DNA of 63,393 nt, the filler included, from Licmophora abbreviata (taxonomy: Eukaryota): NCBI GenBank assembly GCA_900291995.1. It is 14 parts of 14 records of this genome, joined end to end, with 100 filler letters (N's around TTAATTAATTAA, not from the genome) between each part and the next. Parts side by side here need not be neighbours in the genome. Positions count along the whole stretch, not along the records: positions 31,685 to 38,356 come from OLMU01004610.1; 13 more parts are not named here. One strand, 5' to 3'. Under the pieces are notes generated by a model. The model did no database searches and was not told the DNA's origin. It saw nothing but the letters and a program-made list of their open reading frames with translations. A program made the position numbers and the translations under genes. Shown here piece after piece: positions 12,119-54,777 of this stretch. Each line of letters opens with the position of its first letter. Positions within the stretch are counted from its first letter, which is position 1.

Positions 12119-12462
12119 GACGGCGACTAATGCACGGTTCAATATGATGGAGAAAACGATGAATGTGCAGGCTGCTCTATATTGACGATGATGTCGTCGC
12201 TGATGATGTGATGCTGAGATGACGCTGACGAATGTCGTGCATGCAAAACCTTGTTTCAGAGTTTTCGTCGCATTTCTGCGAGGTCTTTGTATCGGTATCT
12301 TTGTAGAGAGATCTTGTGCGGTCGAGACTCTCATGACTCACGAGTCAGTCGAGTCACGAGATCCCGCCTCGCGATCGAGTGACGCGACGATGACGAATGA
12401 CGCCACAGAGAAAGATATGCCGAAAGGTGCCACAATCATCAATCATAGCATCAGTATTCACC

Positions 12463-13033
12463 ATGAAGCTCTCTCTTCGCGTACTAGCTGGTGCTGCCCT
12501 TGTAATGGGTTCGACAGCGGCCTTCTCCATGACGATGTCCAGGCCGTCGTCGTCGCAAAAAACCGCCGGCGAGAGTCGACGTGCTGTTCTGACTACGTCC
12601 GCCGCGAGTGTGATCGCGGGGGTGGCGACGAGCAGCGTCGGAGTACAGAAACCAGCTCTTGCTGCCGATGAAGACCTCTACAAAGACTTCATCACGACGG
12701 AGTCAGGGCTCAAGTATAAAGTCACCAATGAGGGTACCGGTGCTGTCCCCCAGCCAGGAGCCACAGTCAAAGCTCACTACACGGGGTGGTTGGATGGCTT
12801 CAACTCGCCCAAGAAGTTTGATTCGTCTCGCGATCGTGGCCGTCCCTTCCAGTTCCGTGTTGGAGCGGGACAGGTGATTCGAGGATGGGATGAATCGTTT
12901 TCTACCATGACGGTCGGCGAAAGGCGACAGTTGGTCATCCCACCGCGCTTGGGCTATGGAGACCGCGGAGCTGGAGGTCATTCCTGGTGGAGCTACCCTC
13001 TACTTTGATGTCGAACTGCTCGGCATTCTCTAA
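12463..13033 (+). CDS. Thylakoid-lumen FKBP-type peptidyl-prolyl isomerase (apparent frameshift near 12976)
   Basis: Signal peptide ending STAAF; twin-arginine SRRAVL...PALA; FKBP core KAHYTGWL...KFDSSRDRGRPFQFRVGAGQVIRGWDE...IPPRLGYG. The expected C-terminus VIPGGATLYFDVELLGIL* is in the next frame. Confidence 0.9.
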
Positions 13034-29796: not shown

Positions 29797-31393
29797 CTAC
29801 TCTACACAACTGACACTCGCCATCGGAAGCAGAGACGAGAGCGGTCGCGGCTTACGCAGTCGTTGTTGCTTGTAGCGGGAGTAAGACAGAAACCCCCCAA
29901 ACGAGAGCATGATTCCAAACATTCCGACCCACGTAATGGGTATCCCGAATGCAATCGAGGTTACAACGACGGCAAAGATACGTCGTATGCAATTGAGCGC
30001 CGCGTGGTGGACTACTGAGATTCGAGTGAGAATATATGTCGAGGCCAAACTAAAAAAAATATAGACAACAACGAAACGGTGATCAGGCACGACTCTTTGC
30101 AATTACACGAACGGCAATTCCAGAGATTCGCACCTCGTTCACACTAGCACATGCACTCACTTGTAGCTTGCAAAGGCGACCCCATTCACGACAGACAACT
30201 GGATGTAACGGAATATAACTCCACTCCGAAATATACCCTCCGTTCGAGACAGAGTCCATACGCTCGACACAATTCCTGGAAAATCCCAAAGTAGAACAGG
30301 CAGGCATAAAACAAGTACACCCACCTGCTGCATTCGAAACTGGAGATTCATGTCATCGACAGTACCTGACTGTGGCGACGCCTGAAACAGTTTCTGGTAA
30401 AGTCCCCGAAACGAGAAACACAAATTGGACGCCATGACCATGCAGCAACTCTTGAACGATTCCAAAACCGCGCTGCTGCACCAGACGGCAACACAACCAC
30501 CCAGAAGTAAGTCAAAAGAATACAAAAGGGGAGGAGCTGCGCAGGTCGTCCACACAACGGCAACACCACCAACACTCGTCGTACCTTGCTCCACTTTCAG
30601 CCTCACTTGTTGACAATGTCGATAAGAGGCATCCCGTCACGATGACTCCCAGGGACACCATTTCTTCAGGTCCAAGCCATTCAATGCCCCACATCACCGC
30701 AATTGCAGCAGAAGTAATGGGCTCTGCGGCCTTGATTGTCTCCACGAACGCAGGAGACGAACGTCGAAACGACACGTTGGTGAGTAGGAATCCAAAGCAA
30801 AACGCCAGTCCTGCCATGAACAGTTTCGCCTGGGGTGTCTGAAATCGTGATGAGGAAGTCGTGGAATGTCGATGGCTCAGCCGGGATCTGGTCGAGGCAT
30901 TGGCAGACGGCCAGTCTTGCAGTCCTGCAGACCCGAAGGCTCTAAAATGCAACAGCAGGCGCAACATGCAAGTCCCCAAGCCAAATTGCTGCAGCGTCAG
31001 AAAGAGTGGCGGCACATTTCCAATCATCCGTGTCCATGAAGACTGCGATGATTCCTCCGTCAAGAGTAATTTGGACGTGGATATCGAGACGACCCCGAGC
31101 GTGTACCACAACGCAACAGCCAAGACGAGCGAGTACGCCTGAGACGCATTCTGGATCCATCGTACGTAGAATCGACGCGCAAAACTGGCATTTCTCGACT
31201 TTTTTGTGTTTGGTACGCTGAGTGTAGGCGTGGATCTCACTCGGATGGGTCGCTTCTTGACTGCCCCACTGTTGTCAGACTGCGATGAGAAGGATGGACG
31301 GGAGAGAGCAACGGGGAGGGATTTTGGGCTGGAGAGATCGCGTTCTGCCGCCCAGCCATTTGAGTTTTCCCTGGAATACTCTCCTCGCCTCAT
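29797..31393 (-). CDS. Triose-phosphate/nucleotide-sugar transporter family (TPT/EamA) protein (introns 30476-30584, 30050-30160)
   Basis: PLFLTLQQF, TNVSF...FVETIKAAEPITS, MASNLCFSFRGLYQK, spliced SYN-LASTYILTRISVVHHAALNCIRR. First acceptor is a tandem CAGCAG. Confidence 0.88.
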
Positions 31394-32776: not shown

Positions 32777-35700
32777 TCATATGGGGCCGCCTTGTTCATT
32801 CAGAGCGCCCCCCAAAACATCCAGGTAGAGTTTCAAGTCGTCCGAGCCGATGCCCAGGGCGTAGCGGATGGCGTCGTACACCAGAAACTGTAGACTCACA
32901 ATGAGGGAGTAAAAGAAGATTCGAAGTGTCAGGCCCTTGAACAAGGCGCCAACCCCACCACGTTTCACCAGCTGATTCGCTGTATCGACGGGACCCACGT
33001 CGCTTCGGGCCTTTTTCATCTCACTAATCGTGGCGTCGGCTGGATTGCTCACACAGGCCGCCGTGATGCCACCCAGCGTGCCACCCAAGAGACTCACAAA
33101 AAGCGATAGTTGCAAGTCCTCTCGAGCCGCTGGGAAGCTGGTGTACATGAAGGCAGTTGACAAGTCAAACACGGTGAACTTGGCCATATTGAAAGGTATC
33201 TCCTTGGCCAGAAATACAGGAACGGCACTAAACAAGGAGAGGAAACTCTCCTCCTGTGGTCGAATCAGACGGGGCGACGTGATGAGACATGTGTTGATCC
33301 GCATGTGACAACCATACGATTGAGTGATGAGAACAACGTACCGCGACCATCCGGTTAAAGACTCCCAGAATGCTGGAAGCATAGTCGGGCTGCGCCACTG
33401 ACCGAATTCTGACAGCTTCAAAAGGGCACAAAATGAACGACCCGAGAGTGGCCGAGATTGCCGACGACGCCAAAATGATTGGAACTTCGAACTGCGATGC
33501 ACTGCTACCTGCGTACTCTGTGAAGAGGCGGCGAAGGAGCTCAGTCGTCGAGTAGGAAAGACCACCCCAGATGAAAAATCCAAAGAAGGTAGGAGCCCAT
33601 CCAGTAAAGAAAGTGGGCAAACCCTCCTCTTTGACGACGGTTCGAAACGATTGCATCACGCCAGTGTACTTGACAGGATTTGTTTGGATTTTCGTTTTGA
33701 CAACGTCAATCGGAGTCAAGAGCAGATGGACACCCGACGCACAAATGGCCCCCGATGCACAGAAGCGAGCAAAGGTACTCACGCTCAACTGAGCTTCTCG
33801 CTCAATCGGCGATCGACCGCGAGGCCCAAACTCGGGATCAAGTTGCTTGTTCGTACTATACACCTGAGTCCAAGCTGCATTCTTCTCGTCGGCCAGACTA
33901 TCGCTTACGGCCAGGACGAAACATTTCTTGCCAGTATCGTACTGGAGTCCAATACCTGCAGGAAGCAACGAAAGCAGCTGTTTCGATGACGTCGCACCTT
34001 CAGACCAGACCGGTAGCGAAGGAGGTCCGCTGTCAATACCACTCGACGTGGCGCTGATCACGTTCTCCGATCGTTTCTTCTTGATCTCCTCTTCCAATTC
34101 CTCTGGCGTTCGGTAAGACTTATAGCTATCGATCTCGGCGAGTGCATATGCTTTGGCAACAACGGGGCGGTCGTAACAGGCGCGCCCAATACAACCCCCA
34201 CCACCACCGTAGCTAGCCTCCTTCTCTGCCATGGCCATAACAGATGCAGGATCATTCGGATTTGGCATTTTCGCCTGCAGCTCCCTTGAGGGGATCGTTG
34301 TCTGTGGTAGAGGCTCATTAGGTGTAATCACTCGTGCCATCAAAGGGTCGTTCATATTGATACGTGCTGTCAACGGAGGTGGCTCCACGTAGACCATCTT
34401 TGGCTTTTCGACTGCGTAACCAGTTCCATTATTGAGAATTTCAATACGTGTCACTTCGTATTCCAAAACAGCAGTAGCAGTCGCTGATACACCACCCTGC
34501 GATGGTTTCAAGTCTGGAGGAGAAAGAATGCATCGAATGCTCTCCTTGTTTGTATATCCCGATCCAGGATCCACGAGCTGCAATCGATCCACGCGACCTT
34601 TGTTAGGTCCGCTCTTGAACAGAAAGGCTTTTGCTGTCGCCGCATATGCCGTGCTATTTTTCCGGGAAGCCTGTGGCGGCATGATGGTGACCGTTGGAGG
34701 CTTCTGATAACCATTGCCTCGATTGACTAGGTCGATGCGCAGAAGCTTGCCATTGGGCTTCAGTATCGCTCGACCCGTTGCTTGTTCGTACCCCTCCCCA
34801 GCTGCTGGCGGCGAAAAGGTCACGGCAGGCGGTCCATATCCCGGAGCGTACCCAGAGCCGCGATCCAAGACGTCTACATACGAGATGGATCCGTTATCAA
34901 TGGCCGCGAGCAACTGCGTAATCTCTTCCACCGGTTGATTGGTTTGCATCAAACCAAACAAAAGTGCAATTTGCCTTCGAGCTTCCTTAATTTCACGCTG
35001 CTGACGGTTCATTTCATTGGCACTCAGGGGTGGCAGGCCTCGCTGTTCTCGTTGCCTCTCAACGGTGTCCATGTCCGGACAGTATCTATTCAACAATGAC
35101 TCCATAAGCCTTCGCGGCCCATTCTGACCTCGATAAGACTGGAGTCCCACTTCGACCGACGCAGAAAACGCTGCAAACTGTTTGAGCCGCATATCATTCA
35201 CCTGCTCCATGGTTGCAGTTCGCGGCAGCTGCGCCGCTCTCGAATACCACCACTTTTGACAGTCGGCATCGAAACTCAGCAGGAAGCGAGTGAGGTAGGT
35301 GACGAATCGCACATTGAATCCAGCCTCTTCAGCATCAAAGAGGGTAACACCCGAGCGTTTGTTGACGGGAGAACTTTTGTACTGTAAGCCGCCCCAGCCA
35401 GAGCTATCCTCGGCCGCTGATGCAGGTGAAGCCGTGGCTCCCAGTGCGGCACCAGTCGATATGAGTGTCGATGCGAAGAATAGTCTTCGGGTTGCCACCG
35501 CCGAAGGATCTTCAAGTGAATCGACTGTTTCTTGCATAGATTCCTGTTCTACAAGTGTCTTCTCTGCCTGATCCAGTAGGGTGCTAGGTGACAGCAAAGT
35601 CGCCATGTTGTTTTCATTGTTCACAAACTGTCGCCGCTCGGGTTTGAGACTGAGACGTGACTGAGCCCCTGAATATCTCTGAACGCCTGGTCTGACGACA

Positions 35701-35789
35701 TGTGGTTGAAAAAATGCGGAGCACATGTGTATACAAGGTAGAATCAGTGCGACAACCAGAGACGGTCGTCGGCTTAGAGGTGACACCAT
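32777..35789 (-). CDS. Plastid/thylakoid-targeted mitochondrial-carrier-family protein (phosphate-carrier-like) with large N-terminal GxGY-repeat domain (intron 33254-33341)
   Basis: Signal peptide ending CSAF; TRRLFF...SPASA Tat-like signal; four GxGY repeats; carrier signatures PIDVVK, PFEAVR, PADATI; PiC-like H1 (CASGAICASGVHLLLTP) and KEIPFNMAKF. An 88-nt GT-AG intron joins RMVA to EESFLSLF. Confidence 0.85.
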
Positions 35790-36943: not shown

Positions 36944-39002
36944 ATGCCTTGCTTTAGCAGAGGACAACAAACCCGAAGATCAGCCGTCTGCTTGGCAGTC
37001 CTGGCAGCGGCCGCCACTACGACTGCATTCTCAACAACACTGAGCCATCGCCATCACGAACGAGTCACGACACAACGCTACTTTAGGCAAGACGGACTGA
37101 AATCACAAGATGTCGATGTACTATCCACCTCAGTATTACCTCGAGTCGACGAGATGCCGACCTGGTTGAGGCATTCGAAATCTCACAAGACGGAAGAAAA
37201 CTTTGAGATGTTGCGAACCGCCATGCTTGATTCCTTCTTTACCCAGAATGAAGCATCCAAGCTTGTCTTGGCTATCGAAGAGGCTGCCGGCAGCGATCGC
37301 AGCAAGATGGCCGGCGCCTCCGAATTCTGCTTGATTTTGGTTGAGACCATGGAAATGGGTCTCAATGCTTTGATAGCGGCCGCGTTTCATTTCTGCTCGT
37401 GCGTGACGGCGAGGGAACGAAGTCTGTTGCAGCCTCAGGGCAGCTCATACGACTATCCTGAACGCGATGAGCATCAAGCTCTTCAGTCATTTGGCGAGCA
37501 TACCATTATGATTGCTCGTGATGCTGCGCAGCTCAAGAAACTGGAAATGGTCGCCACGACGATTGTCCATGGCAGTACCAGTCGCGTCCGCGTGTCGCCG
37601 GATGCACGAGATTCCGAGAATCTGCAGCATCTGCTTTTGACTCGAACGAAAGACTGGAGGGCGCTGGCGATTCGATCAGCCGCTTGCTTGTTTCGTTTGC
37701 GGGGTCTCGACGACGAACTGACACCCGAGGCGGTACGGGTTGCGCGTGAAGCACTGCATATTTTTGCTCCCTTGGCATCTCGGTTGGGCATGCATCGTCT
37801 CAAGAACGAGTTAGAGGATGCGGCGTTTGCCCTCTTGTATCGACGTCAATACAATGTTGTCACGTCCTCTGTTGACATTGGCGAAAGCATGAAACACGTG
37901 TTGCACGATGTCACGGAACAAGTGAAGACTATGCTGGACGAGGATCCTGAGTTCACCATGCTTGCCAAGAATGTCTTCGTGACCGCGCGTGTCAAGGAAC
38001 CATTTTCGATGTGGCGAAAGATGCTTCGCAACAATTCCAAGAACATCTTGCAGGTTCCCGATGCGCTCGCATTGCGCATTGTGTTAGACGCCAAGCAGCA
38101 GTCGGAGGACGAAGACGTGACTGTGACGCGTGCGCGTGAACGTGCTCTTTGTTACTATGTACAGAAGCTGTGTACGGAGCGTTGGAAGCCTCTCCCGGAG
38201 AACCCACGCTTCAAGGACTACATTGCCAGGGCTAAGGCGAACGGCTACCAGAGCCTGCACTACACCGCCTCCACCCCTTGGCAAGGCGAAGACTGGAAGG
38301 TCGAATTTCAGATTCGTACCAATGAAATGAACAAGGTTGCCGAATACGGCTTGGCCNNNNNNNNNNNNNNNNNNNNNNNNNNNNNNNNNNNNNNNNNNNN
38401 TTAATTAATTAANNNNNNNNNNNNNNNNNNNNNNNNNNNNNNNNNNNNNNNNNNNNGAATACGGCTTGGCCTCGCACTGGGACTACAAGGCGCAAGGTCG
38501 CAACAAGGAGTACAAGCCAACGGGAGAGCAGTGCTCCGACACGTACCTTCGAAAGGTCCAAGAGTGGCACTGGCAACAGCATTCGGGCGCGATTGCCTCT
38601 GAGTGGGACGCGAGTCCTTCGTCGACCGAGCCAGTCTTCCAGGATCAGACCGAAAGCCAAGTCCGCGCCGACCGCATCCGTGCCCGAACGGCGCGTTTGG
38701 CTCCATACATTGAGGCTCTCAACGAGGCCCAGTCTGATTTGGCGCGGGAGCATGTCTTTGTGTTTCTCTCGCACTCCCAAGACAACCTTCACCCCGAGGG
38801 CAAGGTGTTGGCCCTTCCATCGGGTGCATGTGTCCTCGATGCGCTGCGCGAAGGAGAAAAAACGCTCGGTCTCCGGTTGAACTGGAGGGAAGAGCGTTCT
38901 CTTGTCAAGCACAATGGATCGATGGCGAACGTGACGCAAAAACTCAAGAATGGTGATATTCTGAGCGTTCCGTTGCAGGCAGAAAAAGTTTCCTATCAAT
39001 AG
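36944..39002 (+). CDS. RSH: Plastid RelA/SpoT homologue, (p)ppGpp synthetase with degenerate hydrolase and C-terminal TGS-like domain; spans linker 38357-38456
   Basis: Signal ending TTTAF; IFAPLASRLGMHRLKNELED, ARVKEPFSMWRKM, DALALRIV, RFKDYI...NGYQSLH, EFQIRT. AEYGLA-SHWDYK is rejoined across the gap. TGS-like LPSGACVLD...LKNGDIL. Confidence 0.92.
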
Positions 39003-52829: not shown

Positions 52830-54777
52830 ATCGGATTCGGCGGACTTCGCGACGGCTCTGTTCAAGAAACTTCCTCCGTCGGCATTGACATCGTTTATCG
52901 GCGACGACAAGGCATTTTATCAATGCCACGGCATTGAGATGTTTCAACGATTGGTCGAACTCTATGAGCCGAAGACTTCAATGGCTCTCCAAAACTTGGT
53001 ATCAGCTTTGATGAATATTCGGATGGCTCCTTCCGAGTCATTTTCGGCTTACAAACTTCGTATTGAACAGATGAACCAACGTCTTCGCTCGGCCGGACAG
53101 GCTATTCCCGATACGATGTTGATTCATGTGGCTCGCCAGGGCCTTACCTCCGACTACAGTGACATGGTTCGTTTGGCCGAGACTGGTACTCTCGTCTTTA
53201 CCTCATTTGCGGAATTTGCAGACAAATTCCAGGAATATGCGACTGGTAAATCAACTGCGACGGGTCTCACTCCGGCTTCTATTGGATCGGCTCGGGCTGC
53301 AAGTGTACAAGAGTCTACTCAGCCGCCTGTGTCCAAGGATCGCGGTCAGGATACTACGTCTACGACAATGCAATACGACTGGAAGGGTGCTCAGAATCTC
53401 ACCTTGGACCAAGTGCAGTCACTTCGTTCGTGCTTCTCTTGCCCCGTGTGTCGTACACAGACACACCGGCTGGTCGACTGCCCGGGTTTGAAGCATTATG
53501 ACATCCGTCGTAAGCCCTACAATAAGCCGGCCTCTTCCAAAGACGGTATCAAGGAGTCTCCATCCCAGGCTGCGACGTCATCGACTGCCGCTCCATCGAC
53601 CAAGAAGGATAATAAGAAGCTAACCTGGGCTGCCCGCGTGGCTTCCTCTAGCTCTCCTCCTCCACCAACGACTATGGATTCCTTGTCTGCCTCTACGGAA
53701 CACCAAGGCAAGTGGTTATCGCCTGTAAAATCTGTGCCTCAGCCTCCCAGTGATTCACCTTTACTAATGCCGTCCATCACATCCTCTCGATCGTCTAATC
53801 GATTCTCTCCTCTTCAGGATGAAGATTCGTTGTTTGAGACAGATGAGTTGGATAGTGACGTTCAGTCTCTAAAGGTGTATCCTGTGAAATCTGCTGCGGA
53901 CTCAGATAATACAGTCGATAACCACTTAGTAGTTCCTTGCTCAGCCGAATCTGACAGATCTTCCGAAGTTTCGGACTCTCTCGAACAGTGGATTCCGTTG
54001 GACACCAGTATTTGTTTGGGTTGTGTTGATGCGGCTTCGATTACGCATTCCAGTTCTCCGTCAGGGTCGTCATCGATTGTGGTGGATAGTGGGTCCACTC
54101 ACCACATGGTCCCCAATCGTCAGGCATTCAGTCAGTATACTCCATTTCCGGCGGGTTCACACCATGTGAAATTGGCGGACGAAAAGGGTATGCTACCAGT
54201 GTGTGGTATCGGGAGTTGGGTTTTCAAATCCAGTTCTAAATTGATTCAAGTGAGTAATGCATTGCATGTCCCGGGGTTACGATCGCCTTTGTTTTCGGTC
54301 CGCAAACACCGTCGACAATCTGGCTGTTCTTTCATCGCAGACAATCTACAGTGTGTCTTGACATTTCCAACATTCATTCTGGATGTGGATGATACCACTG
54401 ATTGTTTACTTCCATCGGAATGCGTGACGTCTGTGACTAATCTCTCATCGGATAGTTTTGACTATCATGACATTCAGTCCCAGACTACATCCGATAACAC
54501 GTTGCAGTCATCATCGATTGGCCATCGGGATTCCAACGCGAAAATCGATTCATCCATTTTACCGATTTCTTCCAATATGGTAACCGAGTCTTCATCTGGC
54601 CCACAGCCAGATGGAGACACGAGCTGCTCGTCGTCGTCGTCTTACTAATATGACATCTACCACAGATGCAGTTGAGCCGTCACCGTTGTCTGATCCGGCT
54701 ACGATAGTGTCCCCGCTACCGGACTCTAATACTGTGTCACAGTCACCGACGTCTTCTCCACCTGCCTTAAGATCACC
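52830..54777 (+). mobile_element. Ty1/copia LTR retrotransposon fragment (gag, zinc knuckle, aspartic protease), CoDi-like
   Basis: Gag-like MAPSESFSAYKLRIE; CCHC knuckle CPVCRTQTHRLVDC; protease IVVDSGSTHHM...NALHVPGLRSPLFSV. Isolated between two gaps, as expected for a repeat. No LTR, integrase or RT is visible. Confidence 0.88.

Follow-up and report, generated by a model that had tools for sequence, protein, structure and literature searches.

Within a 63,393-base stretch of DNA from Licmophora abbreviata (assembly GCA_900291995.1; the whole stretch is called the window here, and all positions are counted along it), we identified a minus-strand gene for a 974-residue protein that is probably a nuclear-encoded SLC25 carrier of phosphate-carrier descent, relocated to the thylakoid membrane in a plastid of the complex red type. 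Judged from its sequence, it is likely to be a carrier of the plastid whose targeting is of the lumen type and whose large N-terminal domain lies on the lumen side, an assignment well supported by conservation. A preliminary description of the locus had proposed a repurposed thylakoid carrier for phosphate or copper, with a large lumenal domain. The layout that it described is real and conserved, and the thylakoid location is drawn from sequence features only. The proposed transport of phosphate or copper is not supported, since the residues proposed to contact phosphate in the yeast carrier PIC2 appear not to be retained and neither Cys nor His is conserved in the lumenal domain.

Gene structure and conservation of the fusion

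The gene comprises two exons on the minus strand (35789..33342 and 33253..32777), which were placed as follows.

33342..35789, minus strand: exon 1, codons 1-816 (P0001); open frame from the first ATG, ending at a GT donor
33254..33341, minus strand: intron of 88 nt, GT..AG, within carrier repeat 2; read from the sequence
32777..33253, minus strand: exon 2, codons 817-974 and the stop (P0002, 158 residues; coding to 32780, stop at 32779-32777); open frame, Pfam Mito_carr at E 9.3e-14

An 853-codon open frame begins at 35789, and a second frame continues the protein to 32777. Splicing restores the frame, and comparison of the exon junction with that of orthologue P0003 reveals the same length and no insertion or deletion. 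The position of the intron appears to be common to other species, because the gene predictions P0005, P0018 and P0026 meet an intron at the identical codon. The N-terminal domain and the carrier are encoded in one unbroken frame, with no Met in the last ~120 residues before the first carrier helix.

A HMMER search with exon 1 against 1.84 billion representatives returned 167 matches below 1e-30, the best 150 of which were dissected into their parts with phmmer. Lumenal and carrier parts were both present in 83 of these 150, all four parts in 33, and the helical part together with a full carrier, without the repeats, in 11. The lumenal part stood alone in a further 50 (median 366 residues) and the carrier part in 17 (median 203 residues, longest 509); all 17 read as fragments, because their starts fall inside the linker or the carrier. 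The fusion was also found in transcriptome-derived members of the family, for example P0111 (898 residues) and P0170 (854 residues), so that the possibility of two separate transcripts, named in the preliminary description as one on which its proposal could fail, was not borne out. A search in other algae, which that description had suggested, drew homologues whose named sources are diatoms (among them Fragilaria crotonensis), a raphidophyte (Chattonella subsalsa), haptophytes (Chrysotila, Phaeocystis antarctica and Chrysochromulina parva) and Chromera velia.

A presequence with three parts

Three consecutive elements precede the N-terminal domain (in the motifs below, a slash marks the cleavage point).

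35715..35789, minus strand: signal peptide of the endoplasmic reticulum (ER) type, residues 1-25, cleavage motif CSA and then F26-F27; hydropathy peak at 8-32, F at +1
35496..35714, minus strand: transit-like region, residues 26-98; net charge +4 over 26-60, acidic with net charge -7 over 61-98
35415..35495, minus strand: twin-arginine (Tat-type) signal, residues 99-125, T99-R-R-L-F-F, an uncharged run and A123-S-A125, followed by A126-E-D; identified by sequence and conservation

The first two elements carry the features of a diatom bipartite plastid presequence, with CSA/F placing Phe at +1 ahead of a basic, transit-like stretch. The third matches published descriptions of Tat signals, for which the consensus is S-R-R-x-F-L-K, with Phe the commonest residue after the arginines (PMC7317946): the window protein has TRRLFF, an uncharged stretch and an AxA site. 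Its hydrophobic stretch remains below a Kyte-Doolittle hydropathy (KD) of 1.4, i.e. under the threshold for a membrane helix. When the whole 63,393-base window was scanned in six frames under strict criteria, the layout of paired arginines, hydrophobic run and AxA was recovered at two sites only, namely the carrier gene and a gene for an FKBP-type peptidyl-prolyl isomerase at 12397-13008 on the plus strand (Pfam FKBP_C, E 1.4e-24). The presequence of this FKBP gene is likewise three-part, comprising a signal peptide with TAA/F, then SRRAVL and an uncharged run, and then ALA/AD.

Conservation of the arginine pair across orthologues had been set beforehand as a point on which the proposal could fail. 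Among 115 homologues with the helical domain, 87 were eligible for this count, in that the start of the domain and at least 45 residues upstream of it were present, and 80 of the 87 retained the pair together with an uncharged hydrophobic run, with the family consensus [S/N/T]-R-R-x-F-[L/F]. A site of the Ala-x-Ala type follows the arginine stretch in all 13 full sequences inspected. The complete layout, i.e. a signal-peptide core, a small-x-small/F site and the downstream arginine pair, was found in 27 sequences (the window protein and 26 homologues), and the motif of a signal peptide plus F occurred in 34 of the 136 sequences that begin with M, compared with 97 of 2,720 shuffled N-termini. 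The reading of the presequence given in the preliminary description thus survives in each of its elements: the signal peptide ending CSA/FF, the arginine stretch leading to AED (given at ~35410-35495, found at 35495-35415), and the matching layout on the FKBP, which proved to be the sole other site in the window.

The carrier domain and its descent

The C-terminal part of the protein corresponds to an SLC25 carrier, in the two stretches listed here.

33342..33809, minus strand: residues 661-816, with carrier repeat 1 and the portion of repeat 2 ahead of the intron; Pfam Mito_carr in two stretches, E 1.5e-20, with gate motifs PIDVVK and PFEAVR
32780..33253, minus strand: remainder of repeat 2, then repeat 3 and a conserved tail at the C-terminus, DDLKLYLDVLG; Mito_carr, E 9.3e-14, with third gate motif PADATI

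With Mito_carr detected twice in exon 1 and once in exon 2, the three-repeat carrier of the preliminary description is complete, and the same three stretches were found in orthologues P0003, P0137, P0125 and P0149. The columns of the SLC25 gate motif, PX[DE]XX[KR] on helices 1, 3 and 5, are conserved in the 59 members aligned, with no basic residue in the third motif. The six-helix fold was judged on orthologue P0030, which comprises the linker and the whole carrier, and not on the intron-split carrier of the window itself. The P0030 model shows a predicted local distance difference test score (pLDDT) above 90 across the carrier, and a Foldseek comparison of this model with the PDB gave 16 matches at E <= 1e-3, including UCP1 (TM score 0.79, E 2.9e-9); the 13 matches listed among the 16 are all carrier-fold chains. 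After helix 6, the family carries a C-terminal tail, GxDDLKLxLDVLG (32780-32860, minus strand), in which the two Asp are nearly invariant over 59 sequences. A short strand ahead of helix 1, in the conserved FGPRGRxPxER segment, pairs with the strand of this tail in the P0030 model, at low confidence.

Several lines of evidence support descent of the carrier from the phosphate-carrier lineage, as the preliminary description had it. The Phaeodactylum tricornutum orthologue, Phatr3_J11866, matches Arabidopsis AT3G48850 (1e-45), AT5G14040 (5e-41) and AT2G17270 (9e-35), with an identity of ~33% to the plant carriers (PMC9546453 supplement), and these three loci are the three mitochondrial phosphate transporter genes. 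Many members of the family are named SLC25A3 by JGI. In phosphate carriers, V or L replaces the R/K of the third gate motif (PMC9104175); the window protein has I at the corresponding position, and of the 59 family members 24 have I, 23 have L and 6 have V. Upstream of the first gate proline by five residues, 43 of the 59 retain a His (12 have Arg), and nine residues downstream of it all 59 have a Gln. The Arabidopsis matches, the SLC25A3 names, the hydrophobic third gate residue and the kept His and Gln together suggest this ancestry. A search of the PDB by sequence detected no phosphate carrier.

Substrate

We located the phosphate contact places in the family by the spacing from the gate motifs that we assume for canonical carriers. 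This spacing agrees with the published numbering of His33/His75, Gln86, Lys90, Asp124 and Leu127/Leu175 (PMC7924939). The contacts proposed for yeast PIC2 are Gln86 and Lys90 in helix 2, Gln176 in helix 4 and Met275 in helix 6; alanine mutants of the four each lost arsenate sensitivity, and each residue was needed for arsenate uptake (PMC7924939). By the spacing that we assume, the four places are occupied as listed below.

PIC2 Gln86 (helix 2): W in the window protein; Y13, W11, L10 of 59 in the family
PIC2 Lys90 (helix 2): S in the window protein; S15, G15, V12 of 59
PIC2 Gln176 (helix 4): E in the window protein; E32, Q13, N8, D4 of 59
PIC2 Met275 (helix 6): F in the window protein; F35, W8, Y5, L5 of 59

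Independent of the exact mapping, Gln or Lys is the majority residue of the 59 members in none of the helix 2 columns that run from the PT motif to the gate Glu. Because the residues proposed to contact phosphate appear not to be retained, we file the protein as a putative derivative of the phosphate-carrier lineage and not as a phosphate carrier.

That the protein could still be a true thylakoid phosphate/proton or copper carrier, moving phosphate or copper between lumen and stroma, is nevertheless suggested by its scaffold, by the phosphate transporters that are the Arabidopsis matches of the orthologue (E 1e-45 to 9e-35), by the SLC25A3 names, and by the hydrophobic third gate residue, the His of helix 1 (43 of 59) and the Gln after the first motif (59 of 59). 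We regard this alternative as unlikely, given W, S, E and F at the places of PIC2 Q86, K90, Q176 and M275 (by the assumed spacing), a helix 2 without a column in which Gln or Lys prevails, an identity to plant carriers of ~33%, and a lumenal domain without conserved Cys or His. Phosphate as the substrate is possible, and we do not favour it.

Proton-coupled carriers have acidic residues in their binding site (PMC7611774). Contact point II reads K-E in the window protein, and its acidic position holds E in 32 members and D in 4 among the 59. With the His retained in helix 1 and this acidic residue at contact point II, transport is probably proton-coupled.

The N-terminal domain, proposed to lie on the lumen side

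Between the presequence and the carrier lies a soluble region of ~540 residues in the preliminary description, and of 535 residues (126-660) in our analysis, in which no 19-residue window reaches KD >= 1.4. It comprises three segments.

34893..35414, minus strand: lumenal helical bundle, residues 126-299, with seven helices at about 160-298; AlphaFold2 pLDDT 90-97
34377..34892, minus strand: four GxGY beta repeats, residues 300-471; pLDDT 92-98, with PHROG and BFVD matches
33810..34376, minus strand: residues 472-660, a linker in which LLxLLPxGxGL and FGPRGRxPxER are conserved just ahead of helix 1; from the family consensus, at low to middling pLDDT in both models

Searched over residues 1-660, Pfam gave no family even at E = 0.1, and Mito_carr is the sole Pfam family in the whole protein. 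Residues 126-660 were folded with AlphaFold2 on an alignment of 57 sequences, resulting in a model with a mean pLDDT of 81.8, a predicted TM score (pTM) of 0.77, and blocks of 90-98 over mature residues 30-350. Such a confident fold is consistent with a cargo of the Tat translocase. A Foldseek comparison of the model with the PDB returned 0 matches at E <= 1e-3, and VIA-align over 48,161 chains returned nothing at Z >= 8, with helical rows at Z <= 3.7; as the model exceeds 400 residues, its single domains may be under-tested in these structure searches. The best VIA-align row, at Z 5.1, was a T4 tail-sheath domain (76 residues aligned, root-mean-square deviation 3.1), which is in the range of common arrangements.

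The two structured segments differ in their relatives. For the helical bundle, no relative outside the family was found in Pfam, NCBIfam, the ESM Atlas or searches of shorter proteins; free-standing relatives sought among shorter proteins amounted to 31 matches, 30 of which were close fragments without a Pfam family. The beta repeats, with a unit of the type x-G-x-G-Y ... P-x-V ... P-P, match PHROG families of virion-structural, baseplate-wedge, tail-fibre and head-closure proteins at E 2.6e-14 to 1e-7. Furthermore, 31 BFVD models, many of which belong to Synechococcus phages, match them at E <= 1e-3 and at no more than 29% identity over about 175 columns. The repeats thus resemble cyanophage virion proteins (baseplate wedge, tail fibre) by profile and by predicted fold, and differ in their setting, between the helical bundle and the carrier of a eukaryotic plastid protein. 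A 3,120-residue metagenome protein, P0081, was also observed to carry a dozen or more GxGY repeats and no carrier.

The domain is conspicuously poor in His. None occurs among 515 residues in the window protein, and pooled over 57 sequences the count is 58 of 25,854 (0.22%), with 23 of the 57 homologues entirely devoid of the residue; twelve other long open reading frames (ORFs) of the window contain 177 in 7,593 (2.33%), about ten-fold more. This scarcity may reflect selective pressure to avoid metal binding or a side chain whose titration falls in the pH range of the lumen. Across the 57 sequences of the family no Cys or His is conserved in the domain. A CxGRxC pair after a glycine run (residues 533-538, 34175-34192, minus strand) is present in 15 of the 57 homologues and corresponds to a gap in most others, and may represent a lineage-specific disulfide loop. 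Two candidate roles were considered and rejected: metal binding by the domain, in view of the lack of conserved Cys or His and of a CxGRxC pair confined to 15 of 57, and EF-hand regulation, in view of the lack of any EF-hand family at E <= 1 in Pfam. In our analysis, the His-free domain most likely serves the carrier as a dock or regulator on the lumen side, a role comparable to that of the EF-hand domains in calcium-regulated carriers.

Proposed route and orientation in the thylakoid membrane

From the motifs described above, read with established models of diatom plastid import and Tat export, a route for the protein can be proposed. The signal peptide (CSA/F) would direct entry into the ER-derived outer membrane system of the plastid, where it would be cleaved, and the Phe at +1 with the basic transit stretch would mediate onward passage to the stroma. 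There, the ~58-kDa N-terminal domain would fold, and the conserved twin-arginine signal would lead to its export in the folded state into the lumen by the Tat translocase, with cleavage at ASA/A. Carrier helix 1 would then act as a stop-transfer segment, after which the remaining helices would insert. The N-terminus of a mitochondrial-type carrier sits on its 'cytoplasmic' face. With the N-terminal domain in the lumen, the 'cytoplasmic' face and the conserved C-terminal tail would therefore also face the acidic lumen, and the 'matrix' loops the stroma. The resulting orientation would mirror the mitochondrial one relative to the proton gradient, and the carrier would move a small solute across the membrane.

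More tentatively, the pieces can be assembled into one system: in diatoms, other ochrophytes, haptophytes and chromerids, a folded, His-free ~58-kDa domain might be exported by Tat ahead of six helices, with a new helical fold and phage-like repeats that gate a proton-coupled flux of something other than phosphate, of consequence for growth in high light. We hold this composite to be somewhat less probable than not. If true, the protein would be the first plastid Tat substrate with a polytopic membrane domain after the exported domain, and the first SLC25 carrier with a lumenal domain.

A number of points weigh against a thylakoid carrier of this kind. For Phatr3_J11866, ASAFind returns 'Other', and the row for this protein in an atlas of 70 transporters has no localisation experiment entered. 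MCFc, a diatom plastid carrier of the SLC25 family, was localised to the envelope. The membrane substrates described for Tat are Rieske proteins, in which a single or final helix is integrated (PMC7317946), along with tail-anchored proteins, and in the parts of the Tat literature available to us we found no case of a six-helix domain after a Tat-exported domain. A 58-kDa domain is also large for the narrow lumen. Finally, 7 of the 87 eligible homologues fail the strict test for the arginine pair; among these, at least four retain an RR, KR or RK pair ahead of the hydrophobic run.

Several of these points are shared by an alternative in which the protein is a carrier of the plastid inner envelope, the stretch of arginines and hydrophobic residues is a signal-anchor or a plain conserved segment, and the N-terminal domain resides in the stroma or the intermembrane space. 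The envelope location of MCFc and the ASAFind result for Phatr3_J11866 agree with such an arrangement, as does a cited plastid proteome in which no separation into sub-compartments was made. It would, however, leave RR-x-F-[L/F] and A-x-A conserved beyond what is expected for a plain anchor, and it sits poorly with the matching layout on the FKBP-type isomerase of the window and with a ten-fold depletion of His in the N-terminal domain. We therefore consider an envelope carrier improbable, and thylakoid insertion following Tat export the better description of the conserved layout.

A mitochondrial phosphate-type carrier with an unusual presequence, as the naming of the family and the predicted dual targeting of two other P. 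tricornutum phosphate-type carriers (10.1101/2024.12.16.628690) might suggest, is very improbable in the face of a hydrophobic signal peptide with F at +1 in the window protein, of an orthologue for which MitoFates finds no presequence and HECTAR predicts 'chloroplast', and of its reported enrichment in the plastid fraction. Equally slight is the chance that a lumenal-protein gene and an adjoining carrier gene have been read as one, despite the many single-part matches (50 lumenal and 17 carrier among the best 150), given a frame unbroken for 853 codons, the lack of Met in the last ~120 residues before helix 1, the short lengths of most single-part matches (medians 366 and 203 residues), the 33 of 150 with all four parts, and the fused transcript-derived sequences.

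Relation to known carriers and to earlier records

SLC25A3, Mir1, Pic2 and the plant carriers MPT (PHT3) are the nearest named relatives of the window protein by the indirect measures of BLAST and KO naming. It shares with them the three repeats, the six-helix fold, the His and invariant Gln, and a hydrophobic third gate residue. It differs from them in bearing plastid and Tat signals in place of internal mitochondrial targeting, in the added 535-residue N-terminal domain and conserved C-terminal tail, and in the proposed phosphate contacts, which appear not to be retained. The thylakoid ADP/ATP carrier TAAC (At5g01500) belongs to the same superfamily and works in plastid membranes, including thylakoids, whereas it derives from the nucleotide-carrier lineage and has no large N-terminal domain. 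TAAC is reportedly restricted to green plants. Homologues of TAAC in P. tricornutum are predicted outside the plastid.

Soluble N-terminal domains fused to a carrier on the proton-rich face are found in the calcium-regulated carriers (ATP-Mg/Pi and aspartate/glutamate). In these carriers the domain consists of EF-hands, whereas that of the window protein has neither an EF-hand nor any other Pfam family, and its fold has no PDB match. The Rieske protein and bacterial tail-anchored substrates inserted by Tat are similar to the window protein in having a twin-arginine signal and residing in an energy-transducing membrane. Where they are described, these proteins insert a single or final helix, unlike the six helices that follow the exported domain here, behind a signal that appears cleavable (A-x-A).

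The preliminary description knew of no characterisation of this architecture. That view holds for the Tat signal and the lumenal domain in the texts consulted, and has to be qualified for the gene itself, as Phatr3_J11866 features in two censuses and a CRISPR screen. In the atlas of 70 transporters it is entered as a 'Mitochondrial carrier protein', for which HECTAR returns 'chloroplast' and MitoFates finds no mitochondrial presequence (PMC9546453 supplement). A census preprint describes it as a phosphate transporter targeted to the plastid, reports its co-expression with genes of photosynthesis and the Calvin cycle, and lists as enriched in the plastid proteome a protein 'J11886' (10.1101/2024.12.16.628690), which is probably Phatr3_J11866. 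A genome-wide CRISPR screen, where it deals with acclimation to high light, counts the gene among the transporter genes that it identified, and suggests these as candidates for a malate shuttle (10.1101/2025.09.15.676419). In the accessible parts of these three texts we found no mention of a Tat signal or lumenal domain, and a literature search for such an architecture found no description of it, with supplements, possibly holding proteome or localisation data, outside the reach of that search.

Over its first ~400 residues, Phatr3_J11866 has the same organisation as the window protein, with a VTA/FAP signal peptide and the motif TSRRILFASS, followed by the helical domain and an initial GSGY repeat. 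The two proteins belong to different species, as the N-terminal sequence of the window protein is absent from the table in that supplement. Its supplement cell is annotated as holding 1,057 characters, which we take as the length of the protein. In the row before it (PMC9546453), the supplement also lists a P. tricornutum carrier with a plastid-type TNA/F signal, motifs that resemble those of the carrier family described here (PVDVVKTR and PMEAVRIR), and only a short N-terminal region. By table order this carrier may be J11414, and a paralogue that lacks the lumenal domain is one possible reading of it.

Few diatom thylakoid solute transporters are known at the molecular level, and a conserved carrier addressed to the lumen would provide a named candidate for solute or proton traffic across the thylakoid membrane in some of the major primary producers of the ocean. 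The presence of Phatr3_J11866 in a high-light screen makes the idea testable in a tractable model. Such a carrier would also raise a question of protein targeting, namely how six membrane helices come to follow a domain exported by Tat.

Neighbouring genes in the window

Head to head with the carrier gene lies a RelA/SpoT-homologue gene with HD_4 and RelA_SpoT domains (36944-38401, plus strand), the start codons of the two being separated by ~1.15 kb. Just downstream of the carrier gene, and on the same strand, the ORF at 30515-31393 (minus) yields a partial triose-phosphate-transporter / EamA match at E 1.5e-9, and probably represents a single exon within a larger gene for a transporter. Elsewhere in the window, an ORF at 52939-54645 (plus strand) encodes a Pol-polyprotein beta-barrel domain (E 4.4e-14) and probably corresponds to a retroelement remnant.

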